IMG/VR virus record: IMGVR_UViG_3300006120_000015
Span: 1 to 64,000 of that record
Reading direction: 5' to 3' (one strand)
Length of the DNA stretch: 64,000 bases
Origin: a virus
Lineage: Duplodnaviria > Heunggongvirae > Uroviricota > Caudoviricetes
This document shows positions 1-32,340 of this stretch, piece by piece. The notes beneath the pieces were generated by a model, which saw only the letters and a program-made list of their open reading frames with translations, searched no databases and was not told the DNA's origin. How positions within the stretch are numbered: position 1 is the stretch's first letter; each line of letters begins with the position of its first letter. The position numbers and the translations under genes are program-made.

Positions 1-254
1 TGTTGTATACCAGAGTAGTACTTGTCTTCATTTTCATTAATAATGACGAATTGGCTGTAATTAATAGGCCAACCATCTGCGGCCAATTGTTTTGTGTTGG
101 CCTTCAGTACCTTTTCAGCAGTTTTTCGCTGATTGAAGTATACGCCTTTGGTTATGGCCTCTTCAAAAGTAGCAAAATATAAGTTTTTACCACTACACTT
201 AAAAAAGTCGGTACCCTTGATTCGAATAGCATAGAATTTGACGCCGTTGCTCAT
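1..254 (-). CDS. hypothetical protein (3'-truncated at window edge; start ATG at 252-254 preceded by AGGAGAA RBS)
   Basis: Manual translation of minus strand from 254 gives MSNGVKFYAIRIKGTDFFKCSGKNLYFATFEEAITKGVYFNQRKTAEKVLKANTKQLAADGWPINYSQFVIINENEDKYYSGIQ... with no stop to position 1; good RBS. Confidence 0.5.
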   Translation of the reverse strand, partial: MSNGVKFYAIRIKGTDFFKCSGKNLYFATFEEAITKGVYFNQRKTAEKVLKANTKQLAADGWPINYSQFVIINENEDKYYSGIQ

Positions 255-332
255 GTTGTTCTCCTGACTTGTTGGAGCAAGTATATCAAGAATGGCAGAG
301 AATGGCAACCATTACTATACCATTCTACTGGG

Positions 333-794
333 TTATTGTGCAAGGTCTTCTAGTATGGCCAACTGCTCAGAGAGCTCGGCTTGGCTCATAGTCTGAAGCT
401 CTTCGCAAAACTCTAAGAATTGATCCTCATGCTCAATACCATGGTTTTTCATAATCTCAATAATAAGTGATATTGTATCTTCACGTGTCATTTCTTGCCT
501 TTTCGAATCTATGAATAGAGTATAACACATCGGCCAAGAATGGCAAGCGTCATCATAGAATAACCCACTGGGAATACTGAGAACTTTTGTGTGACTTGAC
601 AAAATCTCTGGAGCCTGTATAATTGACCTATTCGAAAGCAAGACTGGGATGCACACAGCCCCTGCACAATACCAGAAAAAGAATACCTTTGTTTTCAGAT
701 TTCCTCTCGAATAAACGCATACTTTTTCTGTACCCGCTGCAGCCTTTCTGAAACAAACTGATGCACCTCCGATGGTTTCTGAGTACTTCGGCAT
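333..794 (-). CDS. hypothetical protein (true start possibly at a downstream Met)
   Basis: Longest ORF in region on minus strand; acidic C-terminus; N-terminal part low complexity so start uncertain. Confidence 0.35.
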   Translation of the reverse strand: MPKYSETIGGASVCFRKAAAGTEKVCVYSRGNLKTKVFFFWYCAGAVCIPVLLSNRSIIQAPEILSSHTKVLSIPSGLFYDDACHSWPMCYTLFIDSKRQEMTREDTISLIIEIMKNHGIEHEDQFLEFCEELQTMSQAELSEQLAILEDLAQ

Positions 795-940
795 TAATTC
801 CGGCGTTGTGCTGAGAGTCTAAGACCCACAGCGATACGCATACCTGCGACATACCGTGCGACATAAAATTACAACTTTTGTTTCTTAATGAAATATTCTT
901 TCAATACTGTACCGGAGGGCTTGAATACTAAACGGTACAC

Positions 941-969
941 TTGCCAAAATCTTAAAATCGCTTATAATA
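941..969 (+). promoter_or_regulatory. sigma70-type early promoter TTGCCA-17-TATAAT
   Basis: -35 TTGCCA 941-946, 17 nt spacer, -10 TATAAT 964-969, upstream of ORF 1004. Confidence 0.6.
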
Positions 970-1003
970 GACTACATGAAAAACGCAAGAAAGCGAGAAA
1001 AAC

Positions 1004-1192
1004 ATGGAAATTAGTACTTTACACTGCACCAAGGCAGAACTAATCATTTTGCGTACAGCATTGGACAATTTGTACAAAAAATGTAATAAATTGGAAACTG
1101 ATGACTTTGTGCTTAATATGGAGAATGAAGACTTAATTCTTAATTTGACCGCTCAAGTGATTGGCCAATTAGAACTTTTGAATAAGGAGTAA
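1004..1192 (+). CDS. small hypothetical early protein (62 aa)
   Basis: ORF directly downstream of promoter; 5' leader atgaaaaacgcaa duplicated at 1474. Confidence 0.45.
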   Translation: MEISTLHCTKAELIILRTALDNLYKKCNKLETDDFVLNMENEDLILNLTAQVIGQLELLNKE

Positions 1193-1196
1193 TACT

Positions 1197-1334
1197 ATGA
1201 TTGACTTGCTCAGAAAATATCGTGAACTTTTGTATACAGAAGGCTTGGGTAATACTGAAGTTATACGTATTGAAACTTTGTTAAAACTATGTGGTTATAA
1301 TGACGAAGTAACAGCTTTGCGATACGAATTTGAA
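1197..1334 (+). CDS. small hypothetical protein (45 aa)
   Basis: ATG at 1197 after AAGGAG RBS, overlapping upstream stop; manual translation MIDLLRKYRELLYTEGLGNTEVIRIETLLKLCGYNDEVTALPIRI*. Confidence 0.3.
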
Positions 1335-1395
1335 ACTTTTGTATTCAACGGAGAATTAGAGTACTTTTGATTAGGTTAATAGGCACTTACGAGTG

Positions 1396-1430
1396 CTTTA
1401 GTAATCTAGCTCGGCGTTGGATTACTAAAG
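1396..1430 (+). promoter_or_regulatory. stem-loop of PeSL-like cassette (ctttagtaatc / gattactaaag, 11-bp stem, 13-nt loop)
   Basis: Perfect inverted repeat immediately upstream of promoter at 1439; preceded by smaller hairpin gcact-tacg-agtgc. Confidence 0.55.
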
Positions 1431-1438
1431 TATTCAGG

Positions 1439-1466
1439 TTGACAAAATCTCAAAATCTGGTATAAT
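1439..1466 (+). promoter_or_regulatory. sigma70-type early promoter TTGACA-16-TGGTATAAT
   Basis: -35 TTGACA 1439-1444; extended -10 TGGTATAAT 1458-1466. Confidence 0.7.
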
Positions 1467-1473
1467 TGATAAC

Positions 1474-1707
1474 ATGAAAAACGCAAAATCTATGACAAAA
1501 AACGAATTTAATCTAAATGATTACATTTCCCCAGAATACGAACAATCGTATTACAAAGGAATTCCCGTAGAATTTCGTACTAAAGTGTCCGCAATTCTTA
1601 AGTCAAAAGGTTACAAATTTCGTTTCTTGTTTCGTGGTAGTAAAAAGCATTCAGATGCCTCGGTTCGACTGAGAAATGCTAAAACTTTTGCAGTATATCA
1701 ACGGTAA
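1474..1707 (+). CDS. small hypothetical basic protein (77 aa)
   Basis: ORF downstream of promoter. Confidence 0.45.
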   Translation: MKNAKSMTKNEFNLNDYISPEYEQSYYKGIPVEFRTKVSAILKSKGYKFRFLFRGSKKHSDASVRLRNAKTFAVYQR

Positions 1708-1710
1708 GTA

Positions 1711-1920
1711 TTGAAAAAAGGAATGAAAATGAAACAATACGCATTAATTTACGAAGGCTCTGCTATTGAGTATACGGGTTACTTCGAAACTGTAAAGAAA
1801 TGTATTACATACGTGAGAAAACGATATGGTACTAATACAGAAGTAGTAATCCGTGCTGTTTACCCAGTAGTCGAAAATGAGTACTATTCGGTTAAAACAG
1901 GTAAGCTCGTGAATATCTGA
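1711..1920 (+). CDS. small hypothetical protein (69 aa)
   Basis: ORF; 3' end lies in conserved block atatctgaccggtttact shared with ORF 2206-2427. Confidence 0.45.
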   Translation: MKKGMKMKQYALIYEGSAIEYTGYFETVKKCITYVRKRYGTNTEVVIRAVYPVVENEYYSVKTGKLVNI

Positions 1921-1949
1921 CCGGTTTACTAGATTACTTAAGTAGTCAG

Positions 1950-1978
1950 TTGCCATTCAGGTAAAATTGTGGTAGAAT
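1950..1978 (+). promoter_or_regulatory. sigma70-type early promoter TTGCCA-17-TGgTAGAAT
   Basis: -35 1950-1955, extended -10 1970-1978; preceded by palindrome tacttaagta 1935-1944. Confidence 0.55.
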
Positions 1979-2009
1979 TCTCTTATTATAAATTGAAAAG
2001 GACGCCAAA

Positions 2010-2180
2010 ATGTCAAGCTTAACTAAAAATGATTACATTGCTCTTATCATTGAGCATATTGTAAACCAAGGGTATTCAAGCTCGGATCGGTTTGTGAACT
2101 ATATCACTATGATTCTCCCGCAAATGAATACGGAAGAATTACAGGACGAACTGGACGCATTGGAACTGGCGGCGGTTTAA
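2010..2180 (+). CDS. small hypothetical acidic protein (56 aa)
   Basis: ATG 2010 after AAAAGGA RBS; manual translation MSSLTKNDYIALIIEHIVNQGYSSSDRFVNYITMILPQMNTEELQDELDALELAAV*. Confidence 0.4.
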   Translation: MSSLTKNDYIALIIEHIVNQGYSSSDRFVNYITMILPQMNTEELQDELDALELAAV

Positions 2181-2205
2181 ACTTTTGTACTAGAAAGGAT
2201 TAAAA

Positions 2206-2427
2206 ATGCAAACTAATTTCGTAACTGAGATGGTCGATGACATTTTCGATAGCGAAGGCGATGTTGAAATTGGCAACTTAAGTTTTAGCCGGTCTCAAAT
2301 TGTGAAAGAATTAGATCCAATTGCGTACCGTATGGCGGTAAACGAATACATTGATTTTATGATAGACGATTTGGACCCAGAGTCGGATACTGATGAAATT
2401 GAGCGATTGGAACAATGTTATATCTGA
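2206..2427 (+). CDS. small hypothetical acidic protein (73 aa)
   Basis: ORF with RBS AAAGGA; ends in conserved atatctgaccggtttact block. Confidence 0.45.
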   Translation: MQTNFVTEMVDDIFDSEGDVEIGNLSFSRSQIVKELDPIAYRMAVNEYIDFMIDDLDPESDTDEIERLEQCYI

Positions 2428-2438
2428 CCGGTTTACTG

Positions 2439-2454
2439 GAGTACTTTGGTACTC
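2439..2454 (+). promoter_or_regulatory. stem-loop gagtac-tttg-gtactc of PeSL-like cassette
   Basis: 6-bp perfect stem directly between conserved block and promoter. Confidence 0.45.
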
Positions 2455-2457
2455 AGG

Positions 2458-2486
2458 TTGACAATCAGGTAAAATTCTGGTATAAT
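2458..2486 (+). promoter_or_regulatory. sigma70-type early promoter TTGACA-17-TGGTATAAT
   Basis: -35 2458-2463; extended -10 2478-2486; same architecture as 1439. Confidence 0.7.
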
Positions 2487-2511
2487 TGGTGTTTTGATTG
2501 TGAGGTAAACA

Positions 2512-2724
2512 ATGGCTAAACGAAAGTACAAACGCTCGGAAATATTCGATGAGGTAAGAGATTTTCTCGAAGCTGTCAACAAAACCATGGGTAACCATCA
2601 GGTTGGCTTGGAGTACATCATTTCCCAGTATGTGCATTTGGTCGCTGAGTTGCCTAAAATCAAACAGCAAGAGCATATCAACGGTTTAAAAAATCAGGTA
2701 AAGGAGTTAGTTTATGAGCAATAA
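2512..2724 (+). CDS. small hypothetical protein (70 aa)
   Basis: ORF downstream of promoter, RBS GAGGTAAAC. Confidence 0.45.
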   Translation: MAKRKYKRSEIFDEVRDFLEAVNKTMGNHQVGLEYIISQYVHLVAELPKIKQQEHINGLKNQVKELVYEQ

Positions 2725-2914
2725 TTTTCAATGGGATTTGATGGTCGGTATTCTAGGTGGCGTCAAATTCAACCAGTTAGGTAGCGAAACCGTTGCTGGC
2801 ATGAGTTGTGGTGAGGTAAAAAGTTCTACCGTGTACGAAAAACTGACTGCTCGGTTGGCAACACCTGACCGCTTTCAAAAGCTCGATGCTTTGACTGGTC
2901 CAACTGTGTTGTAA
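2714..2914 (+). CDS. small hypothetical protein (66 aa)
   Basis: ORF overlapping upstream gene end. Confidence 0.35.
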   Translation: MSNNFQWDLMVGILGGVKFNQLGSETVAGMSCGEVKSSTVYEKLTARLATPDRFQKLDALTGPTVL

Positions 2915-2930
2915 TTGTGCAACAAACGAA

Positions 2931-2958
2931 TTGACAATCCTCGGATTACCTGTATAAT
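2931..2958 (+). promoter_or_regulatory. sigma70-type early promoter TTGACA-16-TGTATAAT
   Basis: -35 2931-2936; -10 2953-2958. Confidence 0.6.
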
Positions 2959-2978
2959 TGACGTTTTAACTGGAGAAT

Positions 2979-3524
2979 ATGATGGAATTTCGCACTGACA
3001 CCCCAACCGCATCGGCTTTGTACCTTGTTGATCGTGGCGCACAAGGCAAGTATTATCGATATTTTGATGCCGAAACTGGCACCTGGTCTCGCTGTGGTAT
3101 TAACTTTGCAGAAGCCATGGAAAATAAAGACAAACCAAGTCCTGTCGGCTTTTTCCCTTGGGTTGGTCCTTTGACTGGTCCCAACTTCATGGTCAACAAA
3201 GCACCTACACCAGAACCAGTTAAAGTTGCCAAGTTGACCAAGGCTGCCAAGGCTGCAGATAAACGAATCCTAAAAGCGGTCACTAAGCCTAAGGCCAAGT
3301 TAGTGGTCACTCAAGTAGGTAACACTAAGGTAGGCTCTATTGTCAAAACTTCAGGTAAAGTTGTCCACCCCGATGGCACCGTGTTCTATCGTGCTGACCG
3401 TCAAAAGTGGGTTGCTGTGTGGGCAGGTAAGCAAGAAGCCGCTCGACCAACTGCTGAAGCGTGCTTGGCTTTCTTGAAGAAAAAATACAACCATGATGGC
3501 GTTGTGTTGGTGAAAGGTGAATAA
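2979..3524 (+). CDS. hypothetical protein (181 aa), Lys/Ala-rich middle
   Basis: ORF with RBS GGAGAATATG. Confidence 0.5.
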   Translation: MMEFRTDTPTASALYLVDRGAQGKYYRYFDAETGTWSRCGINFAEAMENKDKPSPVGFFPWVGPLTGPNFMVNKAPTPEPVKVAKLTKAAKAADKRILKAVTKPKAKLVVTQVGNTKVGSIVKTSGKVVHPDGTVFYRADRQKWVAVWAGKQEAARPTAEACLAFLKKKYNHDGVVLVKGE

Positions 3525-3525
3525 A

Positions 3526-3711
3526 ATGCACCCATCATTACAATACATTCAAGATACATTGGTCGATGCTGCCAAAGCAGGTATCGAACGATTGCAAAAA
3601 GAAAATAAAGAATTGAAATTGGAAAATCAAGAATTGCAATTGGAAATTCGAGAGTTGATAGCCAAAAACAATAGACTGATTGACCGTATTCTCGAAAACA
3701 AAAAGGATTAA
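3526..3711 (+). CDS. small coiled-coil protein (61 aa)
   Basis: ATG 3526 just after upstream stop; heptad-like ENKELKLENQELQLEIRELIAKNNRL. Confidence 0.4.
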   Translation: MHPSLQYIQDTLVDAAKAGIERLQKENKELKLENQELQLEIRELIAKNNRLIDRILENKKD

Positions 3712-3795
3712 TATGAAAGATTTGCAGTGAAATTTGATGTTGGAACAGCTGAATAATTGACCACGTTGTAAATATACAACATTTTACAATAATGC

Positions 3796-3825
3796 TTGCC
3801 AAAACGGTAGGCATTATGATAAAAT
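3796..3825 (+). promoter_or_regulatory. sigma70-type promoter TTGCCA-18-TGaTAAAAT
   Basis: -35 3796-3801; extended -10 3817-3825. Confidence 0.5.
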
Positions 3826-3855
3826 ATTGTCTTAAATTGTTGAAAAGGTTGCATT

Positions 3856-4737
3856 ATGTCAAAAATTGATTTTGTGAACGGTAAGTATCAGGCAATGGTT
3901 AACGGCAAGTTGGTCAAACGCACCAAGTTGGCGCATATGGAATATGTGTTGCGTAAAGCTGGCCTGACCACTGGTGCCGTTGCTGCACCCGTTGCAGAGT
4001 CCAATTTTACGATCAATGAGCGCTTTGAATTCTTGTCCGATATGGTGACAATGCTTGCCAAAGGCGACCAATCCTCCGTGATTGTGACTGGTCCTGGTGG
4101 TCTTGGCAAGTCACACACCGTGACCAAGTCATTGGCCAATGCCGGTTTCAAAGATGTGTCCTTGCTTGATGACTTTGAAGTTGGTGCCAAAATGCCAAAA
4201 GATTCCTATTGTGTTGTGAAAGGTTACTCCACACCTAAAGGCCTTTACCGCACCTTGTATGAAAACCGTGAGTCTGTGATTGTGTTTGATGATTGTGATT
4301 CCGTGCTCAAAGACCCTGTATCGTTGAACCTGCTCAAAGGCGCTCTTGATTCTTATTCTCGCCGTATTATCTCATGGAAAGCAGATATGCGTGACGAAGA
4401 ATTGCCAAACGTGTTTGAATTCAAAGGTCGTGTTGTGTTCATTTCCAACATGAGCGGTTCATCCCTTGACCAAGCCATTATCTCCCGTTCCATGGCCGTT
4501 GACCTGTCAATGACTACCGAACAAAAGATTGAGCGTATGCGTCACCTGTTGACCGAAGCAGAATTCATGCCAGAGTTTAGCAAGACCATCAAGCAAGATG
4601 CCATGGGCTTGATTGAGAAGGTTGCCAATAAGGTCAAAGAGTTATCCTTGCGTACCTTGATTCAAGTTGTTAAGATTCGCAATTCTAATCCAAACGGCCG
4701 TTGGGCTAAGTTGGCAGAATATGCGATTTGCGGTTAA
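3856..4737 (+). CDS. P-loop AAA-type ATPase
   Basis: Walker A GPGGLGKSH, Walker B hhhhDDCD (VIVFDDCD); 293 aa. Confidence 0.55.
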   Translation: MSKIDFVNGKYQAMVNGKLVKRTKLAHMEYVLRKAGLTTGAVAAPVAESNFTINERFEFLSDMVTMLAKGDQSSVIVTGPGGLGKSHTVTKSLANAGFKDVSLLDDFEVGAKMPKDSYCVVKGYSTPKGLYRTLYENRESVIVFDDCDSVLKDPVSLNLLKGALDSYSRRIISWKADMRDEELPNVFEFKGRVVFISNMSGSSLDQAIISRSMAVDLSMTTEQKIERMRHLLTEAEFMPEFSKTIKQDAMGLIEKVANKVKELSLRTLIQVVKIRNSNPNGRWAKLAEYAICG

Positions 4738-4751
4738 TTAGGAGTTGAAGA

Positions 4752-4907
4752 ATGACAAAAGCAGAGTTGCTAGAGAAATTGAAATTGGCACAAAACCTAT
4801 TGGCCGATGTGTATGCGTATGCTGAAGAATTTGAACTGGATTTGTTAGAGCGTCAAATGTCGGTTGCCGATTCTTGCATTTGGGATGCTTTAGAGGAATT
4901 AGAATGA
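4752..4907 (+). CDS. small hypothetical acidic protein (51 aa), ends ...EELE* in GAAGAATGA junction
   Basis: ATG after GGAGTTGAAG; stop overlaps next start (ATGA). Confidence 0.35.
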   Translation: MTKAELLEKLKLAQNLLADVYAYAEEFELDLLERQMSVADSCIWDALEELE

Positions 4908-5083
4908 TTGAATACGCTTTGATAGCTGTGACCATTGTTCAAGGCGCACATTTGGGTAGTTATGACACACATTATGATGTGGTTCAAACCTATCCAAATG
5001 CCAAAGCCTGCCAAGTGGCAATGAAGAAGATTGCCAAAGATGATTTTGTCGTGTATACTTGCCTAAAGATTGACAAGGATTGA
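4904..5083 (+). CDS. small hypothetical protein
   Basis: ATG 4904 overlapping upstream stop; ORF track gives longer alternative-start version 4874. Confidence 0.4.
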   Translation: MIEYALIAVTIVQGAHLGSYDTHYDVVQTYPNAKACQVAMKKIAKDDFVVYTCLKIDKD

Positions 5084-5271
5084 TTATGAGAGAAGATATA
5101 TTTGCATTTATAATTGGTATATTTTTCGGTGTGTGGGCTGTGATTATCCTTTTGTTTTCGATTCCTAGCAGTTCTATCAACCGTCTTGACAAATTGATTA
5201 ATGAATGTGAAGCAACATTGCCTAGAAACCAACATTGTGTGTTGGTTGCATTACCAAAGGACACAAACTAA
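5080..5271 (+). CDS. small membrane protein (one TM helix)
   Basis: Hydrophobic stretch FAFIIGIFFGVWAVIILLF. Confidence 0.4.
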   Translation: MIMREDIFAFIIGIFFGVWAVIILLFSIPSSSINRLDKLINECEATLPRNQHCVLVALPKDTN

Positions 5272-5435
5272 TGAAGTGGTTATACCTTTTATTCCATGGC
5301 AACAAATGCCGTCACAAGTGGAAGATTATCAAAACAACCGATGTTTACCAATACGAAGAATCAAAGTTGCCACATTCAACCCGTTACACCTTACAATGTA
5401 CCAAGTGTGGTGACCTTAAAACGGTTAAAACCTAA
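5271..5435 (+). CDS. small Zn-ribbon-like protein
   Basis: C..C/H and CTKCG motifs; start TAATG overlap. Confidence 0.3.
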   Translation: MKWLYLLFHGNKCRHKWKIIKTTDVYQYEESKLPHSTRYTLQCTKCGDLKTVKT

Positions 5436-5444
5436 CAGGAGAAA

Positions 5445-5669
5445 ATGATGCACAAAACCATCACCAAAACAAAACTATTTGCCAATGGTCGTTTGAACTA
5501 CTCGGTGAAGTACCATCAATTCACCACAACCGTGACGGATGTGGATACTGGTCTTCAAACCAAAGAGCTGTTTCATGAAGAAACCGTAAAGTATTTCCAG
5601 TTGCCATTCGAATTTGGCACGCAAGTCCAATTTGGACCCTGTGACGACACCGGCCAATATTACCGTTGA
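5445..5669 (+). CDS. small hypothetical protein (74 aa)
   Basis: ORF with RBS AGGAGAAAATG. Confidence 0.4.
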   Translation: MMHKTITKTKLFANGRLNYSVKYHQFTTTVTDVDTGLQTKELFHEETVKYFQLPFEFGTQVQFGPCDDTGQYYR

Positions 5670-5707
5670 TAATACTTGACCAAAAGGCTTGAGTACTTTT
5701 TGGTTAA

Positions 5708-5736
5708 TTGCCAACCAGCTGTTTCCGTGATATAAT
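5708..5736 (+). promoter_or_regulatory. sigma70-type early promoter TTGCCA-17-TGaTATAAT
   Basis: -35 5708-5713; extended -10 5728-5736. Confidence 0.6.
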
Positions 5737-5768
5737 TATTGCATTGATTGATTGAAAAGGAGTTTGTT

Positions 5769-6200
5769 ATGGGTACTCGTAGTCGCATTGGTGTCATGCA
5801 CGGTGATGTGTGCAAGTCAGTTTATTGTCATTGGGATGGTTATTTGGAACACAATGGCCGTATCTTGTTGGATCATTATGATTCAGCAAAAGCCAACCGA
5901 TTGGTTAAATTTGGTGATATGTCCGTTTTAAAACCTGAAATTGTAATTCCTGAAGGTGTCGAGCATTGGTTTGATGCCCGAGCACAAGATATCACCGTGT
6001 TTTATGGTCGTGACCGTGGTGAAGATGGTATTGATTTTCAAGTTGACCATACCTTTAAAGATTTTATTGAGCGTTGCAAGGATTGCGATGCTGCGTATTT
6101 TTACCTGATGAAGGACGATGTATGGTATACAGGCACACCTGATTCTAATATATTGGTCCGTTTGGACGAAGCATTGGCTGCATTGCCTGTTGAGGAGTAA
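5769..6200 (+). CDS. hypothetical protein (~143 aa)
   Basis: ATG 5769 after AAAAGGAG RBS. Confidence 0.5.
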   Translation: MGTRSRIGVMHGDVCKSVYCHWDGYLEHNGRILLDHYDSAKANRLVKFGDMSVLKPEIVIPEGVEHWFDARAQDITVFYGRDRGEDGIDFQVDHTFKDFIERCKDCDAAYFYLMKDDVWYTGTPDSNILVRLDEALAALPVEE

Positions 6201-9434: not shown

Positions 9435-9656
9435 TTGACGCTTTCTAATATGTCACAAGAATCGGTTTTGGGTTATATCAACAAAGGCCGTGGCCAATGG
9501 GAACCAATTGAGGAAATCCCACGAGGTCATATTGCAACTCGTGCATTTGTTATGTGTTGTAATTGCTTGGCACCGATTCGTAGTGGTGGTGGCCCCATCT
9601 ATCGTGCATGGTGTCTAAAATGCTACGAGGAGAAAAAGAATGAATCAACGGATTAA
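9435..9656 (+). CDS. small Cys-rich (Zn-binding?) protein
   Basis: CCNC...C..C pattern. Confidence 0.35.
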   Translation: MTLSNMSQESVLGYINKGRGQWEPIEEIPRGHIATRAFVMCCNCLAPIRSGGGPIYRAWCLKCYEEKKNESTD

Positions 9657-9894
9657 GGAACTTGCTGAACAGGCTGGCATTTATAATTTGAATTTGGTGG
9701 ATGAAACTGAATATTGGATTTTGGAAAACTTCTCCAAGATGATTGTTAGGGAATGTGCTAGAATAAGCAAAGAAACTTGCAATGAGTTAAAGGCAGATGA
9801 AACCATCCAGATGCCTGCGCTCAAAACAAGTCTTAACCTTTACCATGCCACCTTACGCAATAAACTGGACGAACATTTCGGAGTTGAAGAATGA
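9640..9894 (+). CDS. MNQRIKELAE-family small protein, paralog 1 (84 aa)
   Basis: N-terminus MNQRIKELAEQAG and C-terminus HFGVEE* shared with paralogs at 9891 and 17299. Confidence 0.5.
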   Translation: MNQRIKELAEQAGIYNLNLVDETEYWILENFSKMIVRECARISKETCNELKADETIQMPALKTSLNLYHATLRNKLDEHFGVEE

Positions 9895-10046
9895 ATCAAC
9901 GGATTAAGGAACTTGCTGAAGAAGCCGGATTCATACCGGATGGTTTTTTAGAACTCTTTGCTGAGTTGATTATGAGAGATGTGTGCAATAAACTAGAACC
10001 GGTATTGGCCAAAGAGATTTTACAACTGTATGGAATTGAAGAATGA
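9891..10046 (+). CDS. MNQRIKELAE-family small protein, paralog 2 (51 aa)
   Basis: Manual translation MNQRIKELAEEAGFIPDGFLELFAELIMRDVCNKLEPVLAKEILQLYGIEE*; tandem duplicate. Confidence 0.45.
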   Translation: MNQRIKELAEEAGFIPDGFLELFAELIMRDVCNKLEPVLAKEILQLYGIEE

Positions 10047-10497: not shown

Positions 10498-10500
10498 TAC

Positions 10501-10529
10501 TTGCCAACCACCCTGTTTTGTGATACAAT
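10501..10529 (+). promoter_or_regulatory. sigma70-type early promoter TTGCCA-17-TGaTACAAT
   Basis: -35 10501-10506; extended -10 10521-10529. Confidence 0.6.
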
Positions 10530-10553
10530 TTGTTTTTTATTATGGAGTTGTGA

Positions 10554-11687
10554 ATGTTAAATCGTAACCAAGTTGTGTTTGTTGAAGCTGCTCAAGAAAT
10601 TTTTGGCGTTGGTGCCATTCTTACTCGTGACGGTATTCAGCATGTGTGTGAAGAAAAGAATGTGAGTTTTCCTTATTGGTTGACCACTAAATCAGAGTAC
10701 CGTTATGACCGTGGTCAATACAAATTGCCAGTTATCAGTGCAGCAGTTGCCGAAGAAGAGCCAATGACAGTTGATATGTCAGCTCAAGTCTTGCAGTTGA
10801 AACAACCTAAACTGGTTGATGATTCTGATGTTTCAATTCCCACAAAATATCCCGATTATGTACCCTTTGGATTTTATAAAGACCTCACCAATATTATTAA
10901 TTCTGGTCAATTTTATCCTGTATTCATTACTGGCCTATCTGGTAACGGTAAGACCCTCATGGTTGAACAAGTTTGTGCCACACTTGGCCGTGAATGTATC
11001 CGTGTTAATATCTCGATTGAAACTGATGAGAGCGATTTGCTCGGTGGTCCTACTCTTGTTAATGGTAACGTGGTTAACCGTGACGGTCCTGTTTTACAGG
11101 CAATGAAACGTGGCGCCGTGTTGTTGATTGACGAAGTTGACCGTGGTTCTAATAAGTTGATGTGTTTGCAAGGTATCTTAGAAGGCAAACCATACTACAA
11201 CAAAAAATCTGGTGAAATGGTTTATCCTACCAATGGTTTCACCGTGATTGCTACTGCTAACACCAAAGGTCGTGGTAGTGAAGAAGGCAAGTACCTGTCA
11301 CAAATTCTTGATGATGCGTTCCTTGAGCGTTTCCCAATTACTGTTGAACAGGAATATCCTGATGCCAAAACAGAGAAAAAGATTCTCACACCATTGATCG
11401 ATGATTCCGAATTCGTTGACCTGTTGGTTAAATGGGCTGACATTGTACGACAATCAGCCGACCAAGGCGCCATCGATGAGATTATTTCTACTCGCCGTTT
11501 GGTCCACATTGCCAAAGCATACAAGATTTTCAAGAATCGTATGAAAGCCATTGAGCTGTGTGTCAATCGTTTTGATGCTGATACAAAAACAGCGTTTCTT
11601 GACCTGTACGCTAAATGTGATGTGAAGGTTGAAGCTGCACCTGTTGCTACTCCTGTACCACCAACTAACGAAGAAGTTCCATTCTAA
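10554..11687 (+). CDS. cobS: CobS-like AAA+ ATPase (MoxR family)
   Basis: Walker A GLSGNGKT, Walker B LLIDEVDR, size 377 aa; CobS-like genes are common in marine T4-like phages. Confidence 0.55.
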   Translation: MLNRNQVVFVEAAQEIFGVGAILTRDGIQHVCEEKNVSFPYWLTTKSEYRYDRGQYKLPVISAAVAEEEPMTVDMSAQVLQLKQPKLVDDSDVSIPTKYPDYVPFGFYKDLTNIINSGQFYPVFITGLSGNGKTLMVEQVCATLGRECIRVNISIETDESDLLGGPTLVNGNVVNRDGPVLQAMKRGAVLLIDEVDRGSNKLMCLQGILEGKPYYNKKSGEMVYPTNGFTVIATANTKGRGSEEGKYLSQILDDAFLERFPITVEQEYPDAKTEKKILTPLIDDSEFVDLLVKWADIVRQSADQGAIDEIISTRRLVHIAKAYKIFKNRMKAIELCVNRFDADTKTAFLDLYAKCDVKVEAAPVATPVPPTNEEVPF

Positions 11688-11772: not shown

Positions 11773-12096
11773 ATGACAGTCGTTCGCAAAGGTAAACAAA
11801 ATCGTCACGAGAAAATCACCCAAGTTTTGTTGAGTGGTAAACCCGTATCACCCGAAGAAATTCAAGCCGTGTTCAAAGGCACGGATCAAGCAGCGGTGTT
11901 ATATCGTTTGTCTACCAATATCTACAATATTCGCCTTGATGGTGGTATCGTGAAGGTTATCAAAGATGGCCGCAAAGTCAAAGCATATCAATTGGTGAAT
12001 TACACTGAGTTCAATGCTGAAGGTCGTTATGTTGGTCCACAAACAGCTGTTGCACAACCTGCAACCGTTGAAACAAAAGAAGTTGAAGTAGCATGA
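11773..12096 (+). CDS. hypothetical protein (~107 aa)
   Basis: ATG 11773 after AAAGGAA RBS. Confidence 0.45.
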   Translation: MTVVRKGKQNRHEKITQVLLSGKPVSPEEIQAVFKGTDQAAVLYRLSTNIYNIRLDGGIVKVIKDGRKVKAYQLVNYTEFNAEGRYVGPQTAVAQPATVETKEVEVA

Positions 12097-17302: not shown

Positions 17303-17562
17303 ACGAACGAATTCAAAAAATTGCAAATGAATCTTTTCAATATGCTAGTGAACAATCTGGGTTATTTACTTCGAAGTTTATGGAGCATTATGACCAAAAA
17401 TTCGCAGAGTTGATTGTTGGGGAATGTATTGATGAGTTAAAAGCTCTGCGTAAAAATTATGATACACACCGAGATGTAGAACCGGAAGAAAACTCAGTGT
17501 ATATAGATGCCTTTTTGCAAGCAGAAGTAAGACTCAAAAATCATTTTGGAGTTGAAGAATGA
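17299..17562 (+). CDS. MNQRIKELAE-family small protein, paralog 3 (87 aa)
   Basis: MNERIQKIANES... and ...HFGVEE* termini match 9640 ORF. Confidence 0.5.
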   Translation: MNERIQKIANESFQYASEQSGLFTSKFMEHYDQKFAELIVGECIDELKALRKNYDTHRDVEPEENSVYIDAFLQAEVRLKNHFGVEE

Positions 17563-17577
17563 CAAAGGAGAATACAA

Positions 17578-22316: not shown

Positions 22317-22979
22317 ATGTTTAATTATTGCCCGCCACTTGACTTACAAGACCTAAAATCAGAAACTTTCCCAGATGGTAAACGTTATTACACCACACCT
22401 GATGGTGTTCGTTTGCCGTCCGTTACTACGGTCATTGGTGCAAAGAAGAAGAAAGCCATCATGGAATGGCGTGATCGTGTAGGTGCAGAGGCGGCCAATA
22501 AAATATCCAAGAAAGCCACATCACGTGGCACAAATTTACATTCGATTTGTGAAGATTACTTGAACAACCGCATTGATTATCATAGCGGTGTGATGCCTGA
22601 TGCATTAGAAATGTTCAAGTCAATCAGACCATACCTCGACAAAATCAACAACATTCACTACCAAGAACAGGCTCTATGGTCTGTTGACATTGGTATGGCT
22701 GGTCGTGTTGATTGTATTGCAGAATATGACGGTGTTCTATCTGTTATTGACTTTAAAACATCACGCAAAGTAAAAAAGAAAGAAGATATTCAAGATTACT
22801 TTGCACAATGTGTGGCTTATGCATGTATGTACGAAGAACTGGTTGGCAAGGGTATTGACCAAATAGTCATTATCATGGCTGTGGAAGACTCCGAACCACT
22901 GGTTTTCATTGAAAAAACTGAGGATCACCTAAATACTCTATTAGAATTTATCAAATTTTATAGAGAAAATAGTAAATGA
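22317..22979 (+). CDS. PD-(D/E)XK nuclease, Cas4/RecB-exonuclease-like
   Basis: Motifs GRVDCIAEYDG...VIDFKTS (D...E/D-x-K) and QCVAYACMY (QxxxY). Confidence 0.6.
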   Translation: MFNYCPPLDLQDLKSETFPDGKRYYTTPDGVRLPSVTTVIGAKKKKAIMEWRDRVGAEAANKISKKATSRGTNLHSICEDYLNNRIDYHSGVMPDALEMFKSIRPYLDKINNIHYQEQALWSVDIGMAGRVDCIAEYDGVLSVIDFKTSRKVKKKEDIQDYFAQCVAYACMYEELVGKGIDQIVIIMAVEDSEPLVFIEKTEDHLNTLLEFIKFYRENSK

Positions 22980-23833
22980 CCTTACCAGTATCACCAAACC
23001 CGGTTTCGATGAGCCAAGTTGATGCAGAGTTGCTTTATGCGAACAAGACTCAAATCAACATGGGTAATACATCGTTGCGTCAATTGGCTGGAACAATTAA
23101 CGGTAGTGTTTCAGTTAGCAAATTGCAAGGCAAAACATGGGTTACAACACTTAACACAAGTGTTCAAGGTGGTCAAATCGATATTCGAGCACAAGCTCTT
23201 ACAAATAACTGGAACACATATGGACCAGTTGTGTGTAATATTACCGCAAACTCTTGGTCTGTGAGTACTGGTACACCAACAATTTTAATCAGTGGTAATT
23301 TTCCGAACGGTTTACAATTGAATATAGCCACAGGTGTTGCAGTATCTGGCGCTGGTGGCGGTGGTGGTGGCGGAGGTTATTCGACAGGCGGTGGTGGTGC
23401 CGGTTCTGCCGGTGGTCCAGCAATTACTGTCACTGGTTACACAGGCGGACCAATAGTATTTACAAACAACGGTATTATCGCAGGCGGTGGCGGTGGTGGT
23501 GGCGGTGGTTCTGGTGGATATTCACCACCCGCAGGCAAAAGCGGTGCATCATCTTATTATGGTGGCGCAGGCGGTGGCGGACCAGCTTTTGGTGCTGGTG
23601 GCTCATCTGGTTCAGGTAATGGCGCAGCGGCGACCTTCAATAGTGCAGGCGGCGGAAGTTCAGGTAACGGCGGCGGTGCCGGCGGCTCTGGCGGTACTTG
23701 GGGTACTGCTGGTGCTTCAGGTGGTGGCGCATATGGTGGAGGCACCGGTGGTGCCGCTGGTGCTGCAACACTAGGTACAACCGGTTTGGTTACATGGATA
23801 ACAGCAGGAACACGTTACGGTACAGTTAGTTAA
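22976..23833 (+). CDS. glycine-rich protein (long poly-Gly/Ser/Ala tracts)
   Basis: ORF in frame with flanking coupled genes; C-terminal 170 aa mostly Gly. Confidence 0.55.
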   Translation: MTLPVSPNPVSMSQVDAELLYANKTQINMGNTSLRQLAGTINGSVSVSKLQGKTWVTTLNTSVQGGQIDIRAQALTNNWNTYGPVVCNITANSWSVSTGTPTILISGNFPNGLQLNIATGVAVSGAGGGGGGGGYSTGGGGAGSAGGPAITVTGYTGGPIVFTNNGIIAGGGGGGGGGSGGYSPPAGKSGASSYYGGAGGGGPAFGAGGSSGSGNGAAATFNSAGGGSSGNGGGAGGSGGTWGTAGASGGGAYGGGTGGAAGAATLGTTGLVTWITAGTRYGTVS

Positions 23834-26536: not shown

Positions 26537-27675
26537 TGATTGATAAGTATGGTTATTGGCAAGTTGATGAAAATATATTTACAAGTAAAGTTGAGGCTTT
26601 GTTGTATGCATCAAAAAATAACAAACAAATTAAGTTTGTGTACCATGATTCTGTTTGGAAAAATTTTAACACAAATCTTTTAGGTAAAGTTCCTTTGGAT
26701 TTGCTGTATCGTGATAGAGCAATACAACTGAGAGAAAAATACAAATATCTAAAATTGTATTACTCGGGTGGTTCGGATAGTCACAACATATTGATGACAT
26801 TTATTAACAACAATATAAAATTAGATGAGATTGTTGTTAGATGGTCAAAAGAGCTCATTGAAGGAAATTTCTATTTTCCAAATAAAAAAGATCGAAGTGC
26901 TTTTAACACTTTGAGTGAGTGGGATTTTGCTATCAAACCAACATTAGATTGGTTGAAGAACAAACACCCAGAAATAAAAATAACTATAAACGACTATGTA
27001 TCAAAAATTTCAGTAGAAAATATAGAAAATTCTATGTTTGACGTAAATCATACTAGAAGTGGTTTGATTCAGCATATGCCAATATATGTTCCATATGAAA
27101 AAGATACGACAGGCCATATATTTGGAACAGACAAACCTTTATTATATTTGATTGACAAAAAGATATATATGTATTTCAATGATTTGGCTTTAACAGCTCT
27201 TTATATAAATCACGAAGAAGAACATTTTGTCGAAAATAAAGAATGTTTTTATTGGGCACCAGATTTGCCTTTACTGGCTTATGAAATGGCATATCAGTTT
27301 GCTCAACACTTTGTTAGAAACCCAGAAGAAAGAAAACTGTTGCCTGGTTTTGGTACAGTTGATAAAAAAGAAATGTCAATGTCTGAAATGATACAATTAC
27401 AAAATAATATGGCCAGAGAAATTTGTTATACAACTTGGGACAATCGTTTTCAAGCAGATAAACCAAAAAGTGGTTTAGCTAGAGATAAATTTTTATGGTT
27501 TTTTATCGGAGAAAAATTTGAAAAACCAAAGCAAGCTTTTTTAAGCGGGGTTCGTTCAAAAACTGAAGGCATAAACAAAGAATTTTTAAAAGAAGAAAGA
27601 CTAAGAAATGGTGAAGTTTACCATAATTTACTTTTAATTGCTAGTGATTTTTATTATGTTTGCGAATTGGAATGA
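26536..27675 (+). CDS. PP-loop ATP pyrophosphatase family protein, paralog
   Basis: LKLYYSGGSDSHNILMTF motif; immediately downstream of first PP-loop gene. Confidence 0.5.
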   Translation: MIDKYGYWQVDENIFTSKVEALLYASKNNKQIKFVYHDSVWKNFNTNLLGKVPLDLLYRDRAIQLREKYKYLKLYYSGGSDSHNILMTFINNNIKLDEIVVRWSKELIEGNFYFPNKKDRSAFNTLSEWDFAIKPTLDWLKNKHPEIKITINDYVSKISVENIENSMFDVNHTRSGLIQHMPIYVPYEKDTTGHIFGTDKPLLYLIDKKIYMYFNDLALTALYINHEEEHFVENKECFYWAPDLPLLAYEMAYQFAQHFVRNPEERKLLPGFGTVDKKEMSMSEMIQLQNNMAREICYTTWDNRFQADKPKSGLARDKFLWFFIGEKFEKPKQAFLSGVRSKTEGINKEFLKEERLRNGEVYHNLLLIASDFYYVCELE

Positions 27676-27677
27676 TT

Positions 27678-28541
27678 ATGAAAAAAATATTAATATGTTT
27701 ATTGTTGATGCAAGTTTTAATTTCGAAAGCTGAGACCGTAAATGTGGTATTATCAACTACACCTGGAGGAACACTATATAGTAACTTTCAACAGTTACAA
27801 AATTTCTTAGAAAAGAAAAATGTGACAATTTTACCAAGATTTAAAGTGGGTGCAGAAAGTCTTATCGCAGCTGAAGATGCTAGCAAAAGTAAACCTGACG
27901 GTTCAACAATTTGGCTGACGACAGTTGGCGGTTTAAGTAATGCAAAAAATAATAACTTTGAATTTGAATATGTTACAATGATTGACCAACCTAATTTTGT
28001 TCTGGTTGCAAATCCCAAATTAAATATTCACAACTACAATGACTTTTTATCTAATTTAAAATCTGATAAATCTTATTCTTTTTCATACACTTCAAAAGGC
28101 CATTTATTTTCCATAAAGCAACTACTTAATAATGTTCATCCCAAAACAGAATCTCTAATGGTTCCATATAAAGGGGTACCAAATCTGCTCATAGATTTAA
28201 TTGGTGGTGTAACCGATTTTTCAATATTACCCTACAGTGTCGTAAAAGATTATATTAAAGATGAAAAATTGGTTTTGATATCTTCAACCACCACTTTGTC
28301 TGATTATCCAAATATTGTGGTTTTTGAAAAATTATACAAAAATTGGTTGGACTTAAATGGGTTTGCTGTTGTTTTACCAAAAGGGACACCAAAACAGATT
28401 GTTTTAAAATGGCAAAATTACATAAAAGAGTTTGAGGAAGATCAAGAAACTAAAAAATTCTTTATGGAAAATTATTTTACTGTTACCACTTTTGGTGATA
28501 AATATTTGAAAGACAGAGTTGAAAGAGTGTATGAAAAATGA
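27678..28541 (+). CDS. secreted periplasmic solute-binding-like protein (signal peptide)
   Basis: N-terminal MKKILICLLLMQVLISKA signal; ~290 aa, size like TctC/Bug-type receptors; weak assignment. Confidence 0.4.
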   Translation: MKKILICLLLMQVLISKAETVNVVLSTTPGGTLYSNFQQLQNFLEKKNVTILPRFKVGAESLIAAEDASKSKPDGSTIWLTTVGGLSNAKNNNFEFEYVTMIDQPNFVLVANPKLNIHNYNDFLSNLKSDKSYSFSYTSKGHLFSIKQLLNNVHPKTESLMVPYKGVPNLLIDLIGGVTDFSILPYSVVKDYIKDEKLVLISSTTTLSDYPNIVVFEKLYKNWLDLNGFAVVLPKGTPKQIVLKWQNYIKEFEEDQETKKFFMENYFTVTTFGDKYLKDRVERVYEK

Positions 28542-31411: not shown

Positions 31412-31426
31412 ATACCATAATGTGGC

Positions 31427-31455
31427 TTGACTTTTTGTTAAACCTGATATATAAT
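31427..31455 (+). promoter_or_regulatory. sigma70-type promoter TTGACT-17-TATAAT driving tmRNA
   Basis: -35 31427-31432, -10 31450-31455. Confidence 0.6.
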
Positions 31456-31461
31456 ATGAGA

Positions 31462-31770
31462 TATGGTTGTATGAAGCAACTTGAAAAATGTTCTGGAAGC
31501 GGGTTCGACTCCCGCCAGGTCCACCATAAAACACATTAGCTCTACGGAGCCCCAGTTATCGTTCTAGACGTGGGATAACGGAATAGTGTGTTTTATAATG
31601 GGCCTGCCATGGTTTCGACAGGGCAAAGAGTATAGAAGTGGACAACTAGACACAGATAGTCTATAAAAGTAAACTAAGTAAATGTAAATGATTCAAAATT
31701 CGCATTGGCTGCCTAATTAACGGCACCTAGGGTTTCGGTTGGTTTCCTCGTAACAGAATAACCAACCACT
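31462..31770 (+). ncRNA. ssrA: permuted two-piece tmRNA (ssrA): acceptor piece then coding piece
   Basis: T-arm GCGGG-TTCGACT-CCCGC (31499-31515) + 3' acceptor strand CAGGTCC-A-CCA ending 31526; 5' strand GGGCCUG at 31600-31606 downstream pairs with G3:U70 wobble (AlaRS identity); GGTTTCGACAGGG tmRNA 5'-end signature; tag frame ...DSKFALAA-TAA ending 31716; 3' hairpin 31735-31767. Confidence 0.75.
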
Positions 31771-31782
31771 TTAAGGATAAAA

Positions 31783-32340
31783 ATGCAGTACTGGAAAATT
31801 GTTGAAGCTGGCGACTATAAAGTTTATGGCCAAAAAATCTTAGAGCTGCACAGAAAGAAACCGGAGTTCTTTCGACACATAAATCTTTTCTGGAATCCAG
31901 TAAAGACAGACAGACTAAAAGAAGTTTTGGATAACATACCAGAATTTCAAGGTGTGATAGAAAAATTTGGGCCAATAAAACAGATGGCGGTCTTGACATT
32001 AGGTACTGATAGTAGTACACTACATATAGACCACACAGATGATTTAAATAACGGTGTTCAGGCAAGGTTAAATATACCATTGTTGAACTGTGAAGGTTCT
32101 TCAACCGCATTTTTTGAAATGGACGAAAAAACATTTCAGATGCATGAATCAACACCATCCGGCGCAAAATATTGGCCTACGAGTCTTAGGAACAGTTTGG
32201 AACCAATCACAGAGATTGAACTGATACAACCAACAATTCTAAGAACATCAAGTCCACATACAATTTTTTGTAGGACTTGCCAATACCCTAGAATATCGCT
32301 TACAATATCGTTTGTAAATGATGTTGTAAACTTTTTATGA
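31783..32340 (+). CDS. cupin/2OG-Fe(II)-oxygenase-like protein, paralog 5
   Basis: LHIDHTDD ... SSPHTIF. Confidence 0.45.
   Translation: MQYWKIVEAGDYKVYGQKILELHRKKPEFFRHINLFWNPVKTDRLKEVLDNIPEFQGVIEKFGPIKQMAVLTLGTDSSTLHIDHTDDLNNGVQARLNIPLLNCEGSSTAFFEMDEKTFQMHESTPSGAKYWPTSLRNSLEPITEIELIQPTILRTSSPHTIFCRTCQYPRISLTISFVNDVVNFL

Follow-up and report, generated by a model that had tools for sequence, protein, structure and literature searches.

The stretch of DNA analysed here, a window of 64,000 nucleotides (nt) comprising positions 1 to 64,000 of the IMG/VR virus record IMGVR_UViG_3300006120_000015, carries a series of short intergenic cassettes, in which a stem-loop and a predicted early promoter separate small open reading frames (ORFs). 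Judging from their sequence and that of natural variants, we consider these cassettes, with a probability of about 0.8, to be composite regulatory linkers of the promoter-early stem-loop (PeSL) type, situated in the early, hyperplastic part of the genome of a freshwater T4-type myovirus that has not been cultured. PeSLs have been defined as units that start at the stop codon of the upstream gene, include a stem-loop and a sigma-70-like early promoter, and end with the Shine-Dalgarno (SD) sequence and the ATG of the next gene; they are repeated within a genome, concentrated in the hyperplastic regions of T4-type phages and located at the indel or replacement breakpoints of close relatives (PMC2839356; PMC4122927). 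An earlier note on this DNA had proposed the PeSL interpretation, which is supported: every part of the published definition that sequence comparison can address is found here. Moreover, the natural variants provide unusually clear natural-population evidence for what is an already known kind of element.

Two of the cassettes, c1950 (1913-2009, plus strand, between ORF63 and ORF56) and c2458 (2420-2511, plus strand, between ORF73 and ORF70), form a pair in which a sequence block, a 6-bp tetraloop hairpin and a promoter follow each other in the same order. The 18-nt block, ATATCTGACCGGTTTACT, occurs at 1913-1930 and 2420-2437 and, with up to three mismatches allowed, nowhere else in the window, while shuffled sequences yield 0.06 such matches on average. 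Both copies include the TGA stop of an ORF together with the sense codon before it (stops at 1918-1920 and 2425-2427), which bears out the earlier claim that both ORFs end inside an identical block; the first of them, then placed at 1711-1920, does terminate at 1920, but its likelier start is the ATG at 1729 (63 aa), as called in many assemblies. In c1950, the block is followed by a hairpin at 1932-1947, a TTGCCA-17-TAGAAT promoter with TG extension at 1950-1978 and a 5' untranslated region (UTR) with SD sequence leading to the ATG at 2010; the corresponding parts of c2458 are a hairpin at 2439-2454, a TTGACA-17-TATAAT promoter with TG extension at 2458-2486 and the UTR and SD sequence 'GTGAGGTAAACA' leading to the ATG at 2512. 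The anticipated succession of block, hairpin and promoter with a 17-nt spacer is thus present in both cassettes, except that the -10 element of the first one reads TGGTAGAAT and not TGGTATAAT. The likeness goes beyond the extent first noted, with 1913-1979 (the left copy, in c1950) and 2420-2487 forming an imperfect repeat of 68 nt with approximately 85% identity and a single indel. Alignment of the window cassettes with those of the variant contigs described below places the limits of the unit at the stop codon and the ATG, and the combination 'GATGAGGTAAA-ATG' heads three unrelated ORFs in three genomes, namely ORF70 of the window, the ORF181 homologue of variant L034 and a novel ORF65 of variant L042. 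Exact scans of IMG/VR with the 18-nt block and with a degenerate promoter core returned no matches.

A second pair is made up of c941 (900-1003, plus strand), with a hairpin at 909-938 and a TTGCCA-16-TATAAT promoter at 941-968, and c1439 (1371-1473, plus strand, between ORF57 and ORF77; repeat families D3, D5 and D14), with a hairpin at 1391-1435 and a TTGACA-16-TATAAT promoter at 1439-1466. Here, a 48-nt repeat (941-988 and 1439-1486, 83% identity, family D5) runs through the promoter into ATGAAAAACGCAA: the right copy extends into the first 13 nt of ORF77, and the left copy ends (976-988) with a duplicate of these same 13 nt. For c1439, described in the earlier note as a variant at 1375-1466, both the cassette and its strong hairpin were confirmed, but the spacer measures 16 instead of 17 nt and the promoter belongs to a sub-family different from that of c1950 and c2458.

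The cassettes separate modules of small ORFs, all on the plus strand: ORF62 (1004-1192) and ORF57 (1197-1370) between c941 and c1439; ORF77 (1474-1707) and ORF63 (1729-1920) between c1439 and c1950; ORF56 (2010-2180) and ORF73 (2206-2427) between c1950 and c2458; and ORF70 (2512-2724) and ORF66 (2714-2914) between c2458 and the next cassette, c2931. The first two modules (1004-1370 and 1474-1920) have no PHROG match, and the other two span 2010-2427 and 2512-2914. Between 1004 and 3711, the small ORFs are ORFans; of the ten compared with PHROG, seven have no match and the others match families of unknown function. We also considered that the modules of roughly 0.5 kb might be diverged tandem paralogues, and rejected this, as an all-against-all blastp comparison of 17 small proteins gave nothing credible; the small ORFs are not related to each other, and the repeats therefore are not leftovers of tandem gene duplication. 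The five consecutive promoters at 941, 1439, 1950, 2458 and 2931 are spaced by 498, 511, 508 and 473 nt, with two ORFs of 56-77 aa per module.

The most informative comparisons come from variant contigs, which were retrieved by exact-protein look-ups and a metagenome scan and compared with the window by nucleotide mapping and base-by-base inspection. Many contigs match the window at 100% identity (among them the 110-kb contig ERZ27272006 k141_287363), and a second lineage is about 91-94% identical. The metagenome scan yielded two informative contigs, including TBL_comb48_EPIDRAFT, which, to judge from its name, probably originates from Trout Bog Lake; a series of lake metagenomes seems to be the source. 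One further candidate, the 212-kb, GC-richer and bacterial-looking contig L038, has only a 30-nt promoter in common with the window and was judged a chance match to a strong sigma-70 promoter. The proposed check for gene-order polymorphism at the repeats in related genomes turned out positive, with indels and replacements found at the cassettes of the second lineage.

Proceeding from left to right, L034 lacks 309-536, with a crossover in GAATGGCAA, the -35 element common to two minus-strand promoters. The ORF62 and ORF57 module, about 989-1486, i.e. the DNA between the 48-nt repeats, is deleted in L036 and, as its promoter implies, also in L042. In L036 a pure c941-type promoter precedes ORF77 and the crossover lies in the last 15 nt of the repeat; in L042 the remaining promoter is a chimera, in which the c941 hairpin and TTGCCA -35 element are continued by the spacer, -10 element and UTR of c1439, with a crossover some 25-30 nt upstream of that in L036. 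In L034, L035 and L039, the absence of 1373-1917 (c1439, ORF77 and ORF63) brings a cassette of the c1950/c2458 family directly behind the ORF57 stop codon. L042 further lacks about 1980-2487 (ORF56 and ORF73), the DNA between the two copies of the 68-nt repeat, and retains one mosaic cassette, a fusion of c1950 and c2458. From ATG to ATG, 2512-2981 (ORF70, ORF66 and c2931) is missing in L034, L035, L036 and L039, and the slot of ORF70 and ORF66 is occupied in L042 by an unrelated 65-aa ORF, followed by the degraded promoter remnant 'AATCAGGTAAAATTAAGGTAAAAAAT'. Both ends of these seven events lie in cassettes, and for each pair of neighbouring cassettes from c941 to c2931 there is a natural recombinant that matches it. 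The crossovers fall in at least five cassette sub-regions: the -35 element, the spacer, the -10 element with the UTR, the first codons and the stop-proximal block. In all variants in which ORF56 is present, its sequence is 100% identical, and none of the contigs retrieved shows a permuted module order. The word 'mobile', applied to these cassettes in the earlier note, has to be understood as gain, loss or replacement at fixed slots and not as transposition.

Since repeats could in principle mislead assemblers, it might be argued that the variants are artefacts of metagenome assembly, arising by collapse or mis-joining across short repeats, and it should be noted that many short contigs stop near cassettes. 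A suspicious structure is also seen at the end of L035 (ENA ERZ27271897 k141_19132), where positions 1-445, an inverted copy of window 1196-1640 with 97% identity, face another copy of ORF57 (93% identity) in a head-to-head arrangement; this reflects either a genuine inversion or duplication at a cassette, or else a chimeric assembly of the two lineages. We regard artefacts as a barely credible explanation for the variants as a whole. They differ from the window by 6-9% throughout, which identifies them as a separate lineage and not as mis-joined reads of the window, and exact matches within the repeats do not exceed 18 nt. The k-mer sizes typical of such assemblers are larger than this. Furthermore, the same junctions recur in independent assemblies generated by different pipelines (JGI 3300021142, ENA ERZ27271897 and TBL_comb48), with three or four independent assemblies containing those of the 1373-1917 and 2512-2981 deletions and two samples containing the L042 contig.

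The variants furthermore point to exchange between cassettes. In L036 and L042, crossovers took place at different points of the same 48-nt repeat, and ORF77 would be driven directly by either the c941 promoter or a c941/c1439 chimera. Segment identities, too, are discordant with the position of the cassettes. The block is 100% identical between the two cassettes of the window and 61-83% identical to variant cassettes at equivalent positions; the hairpin is 100% identical between the two cassettes of L034 and 68-80% identical to the equivalent cassettes of the window; and the c1950 promoter of the window agrees to 100% with the L034 cassette at the other position, as compared to 93% for the one at the equivalent position. 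Likeness within a genome that exceeds the likeness at equivalent positions indicates ectopic exchange, i.e. gene conversion between cassettes. Between the window and L034, 12 differences are located in 1923-1975, only one in the 349 nt from the -10 element (1976) to 2324, and then 38 in 177 nt; given this drop in mismatch density at 1976, the boundary of an exchange can be placed inside the c1950 promoter.

Several results speak against the PeSL reading or at least limit it. Two of the events are not bounded by cassettes at both ends. In L039, L042 and L046, c3796 and the 293-aa gene that follows it (present or absent together) are missing and another ORF is found instead, with the left break inside that ORF and no shared cassette; L035, L039 and L042 contain extra genes, either a T5orf172-domain gene or an 80-aa ORF, at the promoter-less junction of ORF181 and ORF61. 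In total, 14 of 18 breakpoint ends lie at cassette-bearing junctions, an excess which is strong when compared with bases (P about 8e-8), but only marginal with any gene junction as the null (P = 0.06). Look-ups of ORF70 together with ORF66, and of ORF62, in other genomic contexts retrieved the window-type arrangement only. The stem-loops of the paired cassettes are weak, with -4.8 kcal/mol and a z-score of about -1.2 for c1950 (GATTAC-TTAA-GTAGTC, 1932-1947) and -8.5 kcal/mol and about -1.4 for c2458 (GAGTAC-TTTG-GTACTC, 2439-2454), neither being individually distinguishable from shuffled sequence. Across eight cassette copies, 91.5% of cells preserve the pairing of the short hairpin, with one pair alternating between G-C, G-U and U-G; the covariation is marginal, as it was matched by 31 of 500 shuffles. 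Intrinsic (Rho-independent) terminators likewise have a hairpin immediately after the stop codon, but the cassette stems are not GC-rich and lack a downstream T-tract, and a scan for terminator-like structures found nothing at any cassette; a terminator role of the paired-cassette stem-loops is therefore not supported by their sequence. Other hairpins are stronger: that of c1439 reaches -27.5 kcal/mol (z = -6.75), its 11-bp stem being part of a longer, imperfect one of about 20 bp (1391-1435), followed by those of c5708 (-11.4 kcal/mol, z = -3.70) and c941 (-10.5 kcal/mol, z = -2.65).

The marginal enrichment over gene junctions and the two events with ends outside cassettes would also be expected if the cassettes were ordinary early promoters, alike through common descent and constraint, among which random or illegitimate indels occur and selection retains those leaving transcription units intact, so that breakpoints would seem bounded by cassettes which have no part in the exchange; the conserved hexamers and TG extensions are, after all, functional parts of a promoter. 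We consider this explanation unlikely. The likeness is by no means confined to the hexamers, but also takes in spacer, upstream block and UTR and even the first 13 nt of a gene, and neither two independent chimeric promoters with different crossovers in the same 48-nt repeat, nor individual segments that are more alike within a genome than at equivalent positions, would be expected from illegitimate events and selection. The chimeric promoters and discordant segment identities are the stronger arguments for the PeSL-type linkers, rather than the enrichment of breakpoints.

The conservation of block and hairpin next to stop codons calls to mind a different system, in which an integron- or homing-like machinery would recognise this stop-adjacent structure and move the modules, possibly as mini-circles of about 0.5 kb. 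The deletion of 1373-1917, which joins a stop codon straight to the 'TGACC...' block, the regular intervals of 473-511 nt between modules and the presence of a T5orf172/MUG113-domain gene nearby in some variants would be in line with it, and a targeted recombinase was raised as a possibility by the authors of the PeSL concept (PMC2839356). The cassettes resemble integron attC cassettes in that small ORFs are split by imperfect inverted repeats beside stop codons, with modular gain and loss and a proposed circular intermediate. They differ in that every unit is equipped with a promoter, the repeat is crossed at scattered points and no integrase was noticed; with crossovers in at least five sub-regions instead of a single fixed recombination site, they were not classified as integron-like site-specific cassettes. 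The spread of crossovers over the cassettes fits homology-driven exchange better than one fixed site, the hairpin sequences differ among cassette families, and no integrase-like gene was noticed among the scanned proteins, a scan that covered part of the ORFs only. A site-specific system is thus already disfavoured and, in our estimation, highly improbable. It is similarly very doubtful that block and hairpin are the recognition element of an active, phage-encoded and structure- or site-specific excision and insertion system, by which co-infecting phages would exchange mini-circles carrying modules of about 0.5 kb; if this were true, the module spacing and the stop-to-block join would be its footprints, and a lytic T4-type phage would possess an integron-like gene-cassette system.

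As PeSL-type linkers, the cassettes would work as follows. Each linker fills the space between the stop codon of an ORFan and the start codon of the ORFan behind it, comprises the block, the stem-loop, a near-consensus promoter for the host sigma-70 (often with extended -10) and a 5'UTR with SD sequence, and heads a module of about 0.5 kb with usually two ORFs. Among otherwise unrelated genes, the linkers would act as patches of homology, 48-68 nt long with about 83-86% identity and 100% over some sub-segments, between which the recombination-dependent replication of the phage could cross over, within one genome or between co-infecting relatives. Whole ORFan modules would be deleted, inserted or replaced in this way with their expression still correct, and the linkers themselves would be gene-converted. 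The promoters were predicted by consensus match, from which we infer their activity and early timing; homologous recombination is the mechanism suggested by the repeats and crossovers, and block and hairpin might contribute to termination, RNA stabilisation or a UP-like function.

PeSLs have been described in RB49/phi1 (PMC2839356) and in T4/PST and KVP40/nt-1 (PMC4122927), and not, as the earlier note implied, in cyanophages or pelagiphages; a cyanophage study judged the involvement of PeSLs unlikely in its case (PMC4503421). Like those of RB49/phi1 (Arbiol et al. 2010, PMC2839356), the cassettes of the window are stop-to-ATG units with a near-perfect TTGACA-N17-TATAAT promoter and a stem-loop, repeated among the ORFans of a hyperplastic region and found at indels of close relatives, with crossovers between the -10 element and SD/ATG, where they were also mapped in that phage pair (PMC2839356), or within the promoter. 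In contrast to the G(n)-loop-C(n) structures of RB49/phi1, the stems here are short and AT-rich (GAGTAC/GATTAC or TGTTG-loop-CAACA) and lie upstream of the -35 element. Terminator activity, promoter strength and mini-circles of RB49/phi1 were shown by experiment, and the evidence, which then came from a pair of isolates, here consists of sequence comparisons among natural variants co-occurring in metagenomes. With the PeSLs of PST/T4 and nt-1/KVP40 (Comeau et al. 2014, PMC4122927) they share the position of the stem-loop just upstream of the promoter, as in PST, and the presence of a stem-loop consensus and promoter variant of their own in each lineage; degraded 'half' PeSLs near indels were also reported there and may be compared with the promoter remnant of L042. 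The clade differs, the window belonging to an uncultured freshwater lineage whose best isolate protein matches have 25-48% aa identity.

The shuffling of genes by PeSLs has so far been documented for three cultured phage pairs only (PMC2839356; PMC4122927) and is rarely cited; besides the two founding papers, the searchable literature holds passing mentions, with no report on uncultured freshwater phages and no population data. The same architecture is now found in a distant uncultured freshwater T4-type lineage, together with wild recombinants, chimeric promoters and gene conversion, which supports promoter linkers as a general route of ORFan turnover in T4-type phages, the ORFans concerned probably serving host takeover or anti-defence. 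A lake metagenome series could yield exchange rates, crossover positions and circular intermediates directly from the reads, and the natural variants make homologous as opposed to site-specific exchange testable in the same manner.

The assignment of the window to a divergent T4-type myovirus is based on its genes for gp6-, gp7- and gp8-like wedge proteins, baseplate hub, tube cap and tube protein, as well as for a gp2-like DNA end protector and a gp32-like single-stranded DNA-binding protein. Its top tblastn matches are T4-like phages, and no close cultured relative was detected when positions 1-6000 were compared by megablast with the INPHARED phages (zero matches). The plus-strand early region comprises the first 35 kb or so and includes auxiliary genes for PhoH, a CobS/MoxR-like ATPase, an epimerase, a GARS-like protein, a TctC-family protein and a Band_7 protein. 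The 22 IMG/VR relatives with 50-75% aa identity have in common only the homologues of 3856-4737, 10554-11687 and 11773-12096, i.e. three of the 32 early-region genes tested. Because these three genes are kept in the relatives while the surrounding small ORFs are almost entirely different, the cassette region is a hyperplastic block of unrelated ORFans.

Distant relatives possess genome-specific repeated promoter cassettes of their own, all on the plus strand. In L014 (4108-9845), about ten near-identical copies have a conserved spacer and the UTR 'GTATCCATA.TGATTAATTGATAGGAGATTATATG', and in L016 (5997-8272) five copies have a palindromic spacer, with a CAAATA/TATTTG stem overlapping the -35 element. 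In many other relatives, the -35 element is preceded at a distance of 10-15 nt by a TGTTG-loop-CAACA hairpin, of the type seen in c2931 and c3796. Since relatives carry their own repeated cassettes, the cassette families are lineage-specific, as reported for PeSLs.

Further promoters of this kind are distributed over the early region of the window. A scan requiring at least five of six matches per hexamer found 14 plus-strand sites in the first 21 kb, mostly intergenic, in agreement with the at least 11 similar promoters in the first 25 kb that had been counted earlier; within the first 12 kb, seven sites on the plus strand agree with the consensus at 11-12 of 12 hexamer positions, several with TG extension, and the extended-promoter pattern occurs eight times against 0.23 expected. 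Cassette c2931 (2907-2981, plus strand, between ORF66 and the 181-aa ORF) has a TGTTG-loop-CAACA hairpin at 2907-2924 and a TTGACA-16-TATAAT promoter at 2931-2958; c3796 (3765-3855, plus strand), upstream of the 293-aa ATPase-like gene, has the hairpin GTTGTA-AATA-TACAAC at 3765-3780 and a TTGCCA-18-TAAAAT promoter at 3796-3825; and c5708 (5677-5768, plus strand) combines a TTGACC...CTTGAGTAC block and a hairpin at 5677-5706 with a TTGCCA-17-TATAAT promoter at 5708-5736, its upstream block being related to those of c1950 and c2458 and the cassette itself being paired with 10498-10530 (family D11). The families of repeats found in the window include D3, D5, D7, D10, D11 and D14. A 4-bp GTTG...CAAC pattern is enriched (41 vs 21), but too loose to inform, with only two matches adjoining promoters, and an Rfam search of 540-2560 gave no match, even at E <= 1.

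The 'TTGMCAAAATCT' sub-family (D3), distinct from the c1950/c2458 type, consists of the promoters at 941-971 and in c1439 and, as third member, c596 (596-626, plus strand, TTGACA-16-TATAAT). The latter is followed by about 280 nt without a convincing ORF until the next cassette (596-900, plus strand), a stretch which could be a leader or a small RNA; in L034, 537-669 is kept at 97% and the sequences diverge thereafter. On the minus strand, two promoters of the 'TTGCCATTCT' sub-family (308-280 and 546-519, together 280-546) flank a 52-aa ORF. An 87-nt repeat with 89.7% identity between 251-337 and L023 7623-7709 spans a minus-strand promoter, the ribosome-binding site (RBS) and the start of two paralogous 114-aa genes upstream of the window. 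This divergently transcribed gene block beside a GP88-domain gene has its own cassette family, and L026, L027 and L034 differ there.

Close to c3796, at 3713-3747, the window has kept ATGAAAGATTTGCAG, what is left of the 5' end of an ORF, with a frameshift behind it. L042 has this ORF in intact form (59 aa, MKDLQWNLM...), its product being similar in the N-terminal part to that of the window ORF66 (...FQWDLM...); in the window, the ORF has been displaced by c3796 and the 293-aa ATPase-like gene. An insertion hotspot without promoter cassette is located at window position 3525, between the ORF181 homologue and ORF61. The inserts are a T5orf172/MUG113-domain protein, possibly homing-endonuclease-like, in L035 (1881-2252), some 680 nt of extra DNA in L039 (about 1722-2405) and an 80-aa membrane-like ORF in L042 (1300-1542).

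Eight of the 27 ACTTTTG sites of the window are clustered in 583-2187, all on the plus strand, with about 0.3 expected per 1.6 kb of a single strand; across the whole window, the motif is not enriched (27 vs 22.7 expected). Several of the sites (1174, 1363, 1684 and 2181) stand at ORF ends or at promoter-less ORF junctions within modules. The clustered sites resemble the 5' arm and loop of the hairpin, 'GAGTACTTTG', and may be degraded cassette remnants or a regulatory motif. A translation-initiation repeat, 'GGAGTTGAAGAATGA', is found three times (4738-4759, 9877-9898 and 17545-17566; families D4 and D6, together with the following repeat), and the adjacent paralogous gene starts at 9629-9677 and 9880-9928 have 49 nt in common at 88% identity. 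As L039 matches this later part of the window only in such initiation-region stretches of 25-36 nt, RBS-type repeats may also act as recombination linkers.

Outside the cassette region, a permuted (two-piece) transfer-messenger RNA (tmRNA) gene is present at 31413-31807 (plus strand), with 117.6 bits for the Rfam model beta_tmRNA and 111.8 bits for tmRNA_permuted; the tag predicted by ARAGORN is VNDSKFALAA, and a TTGACT-17-TATAAT site lies at 31427-31455. Two-piece tmRNAs have already been reported from aquatic T4-like phages, for instance Melnitz and the pelagimyophages (PMC9004378). Together with the TctC/Bug-family gene at 27660-28541, the match to the beta-type model hints at a betaproteobacterial host. 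Finally, a 285-aa ORF (22976-23833) contains a glycine-rich array of GGTGGYGG repeats (23353-23762, plus strand, repeat family D1).

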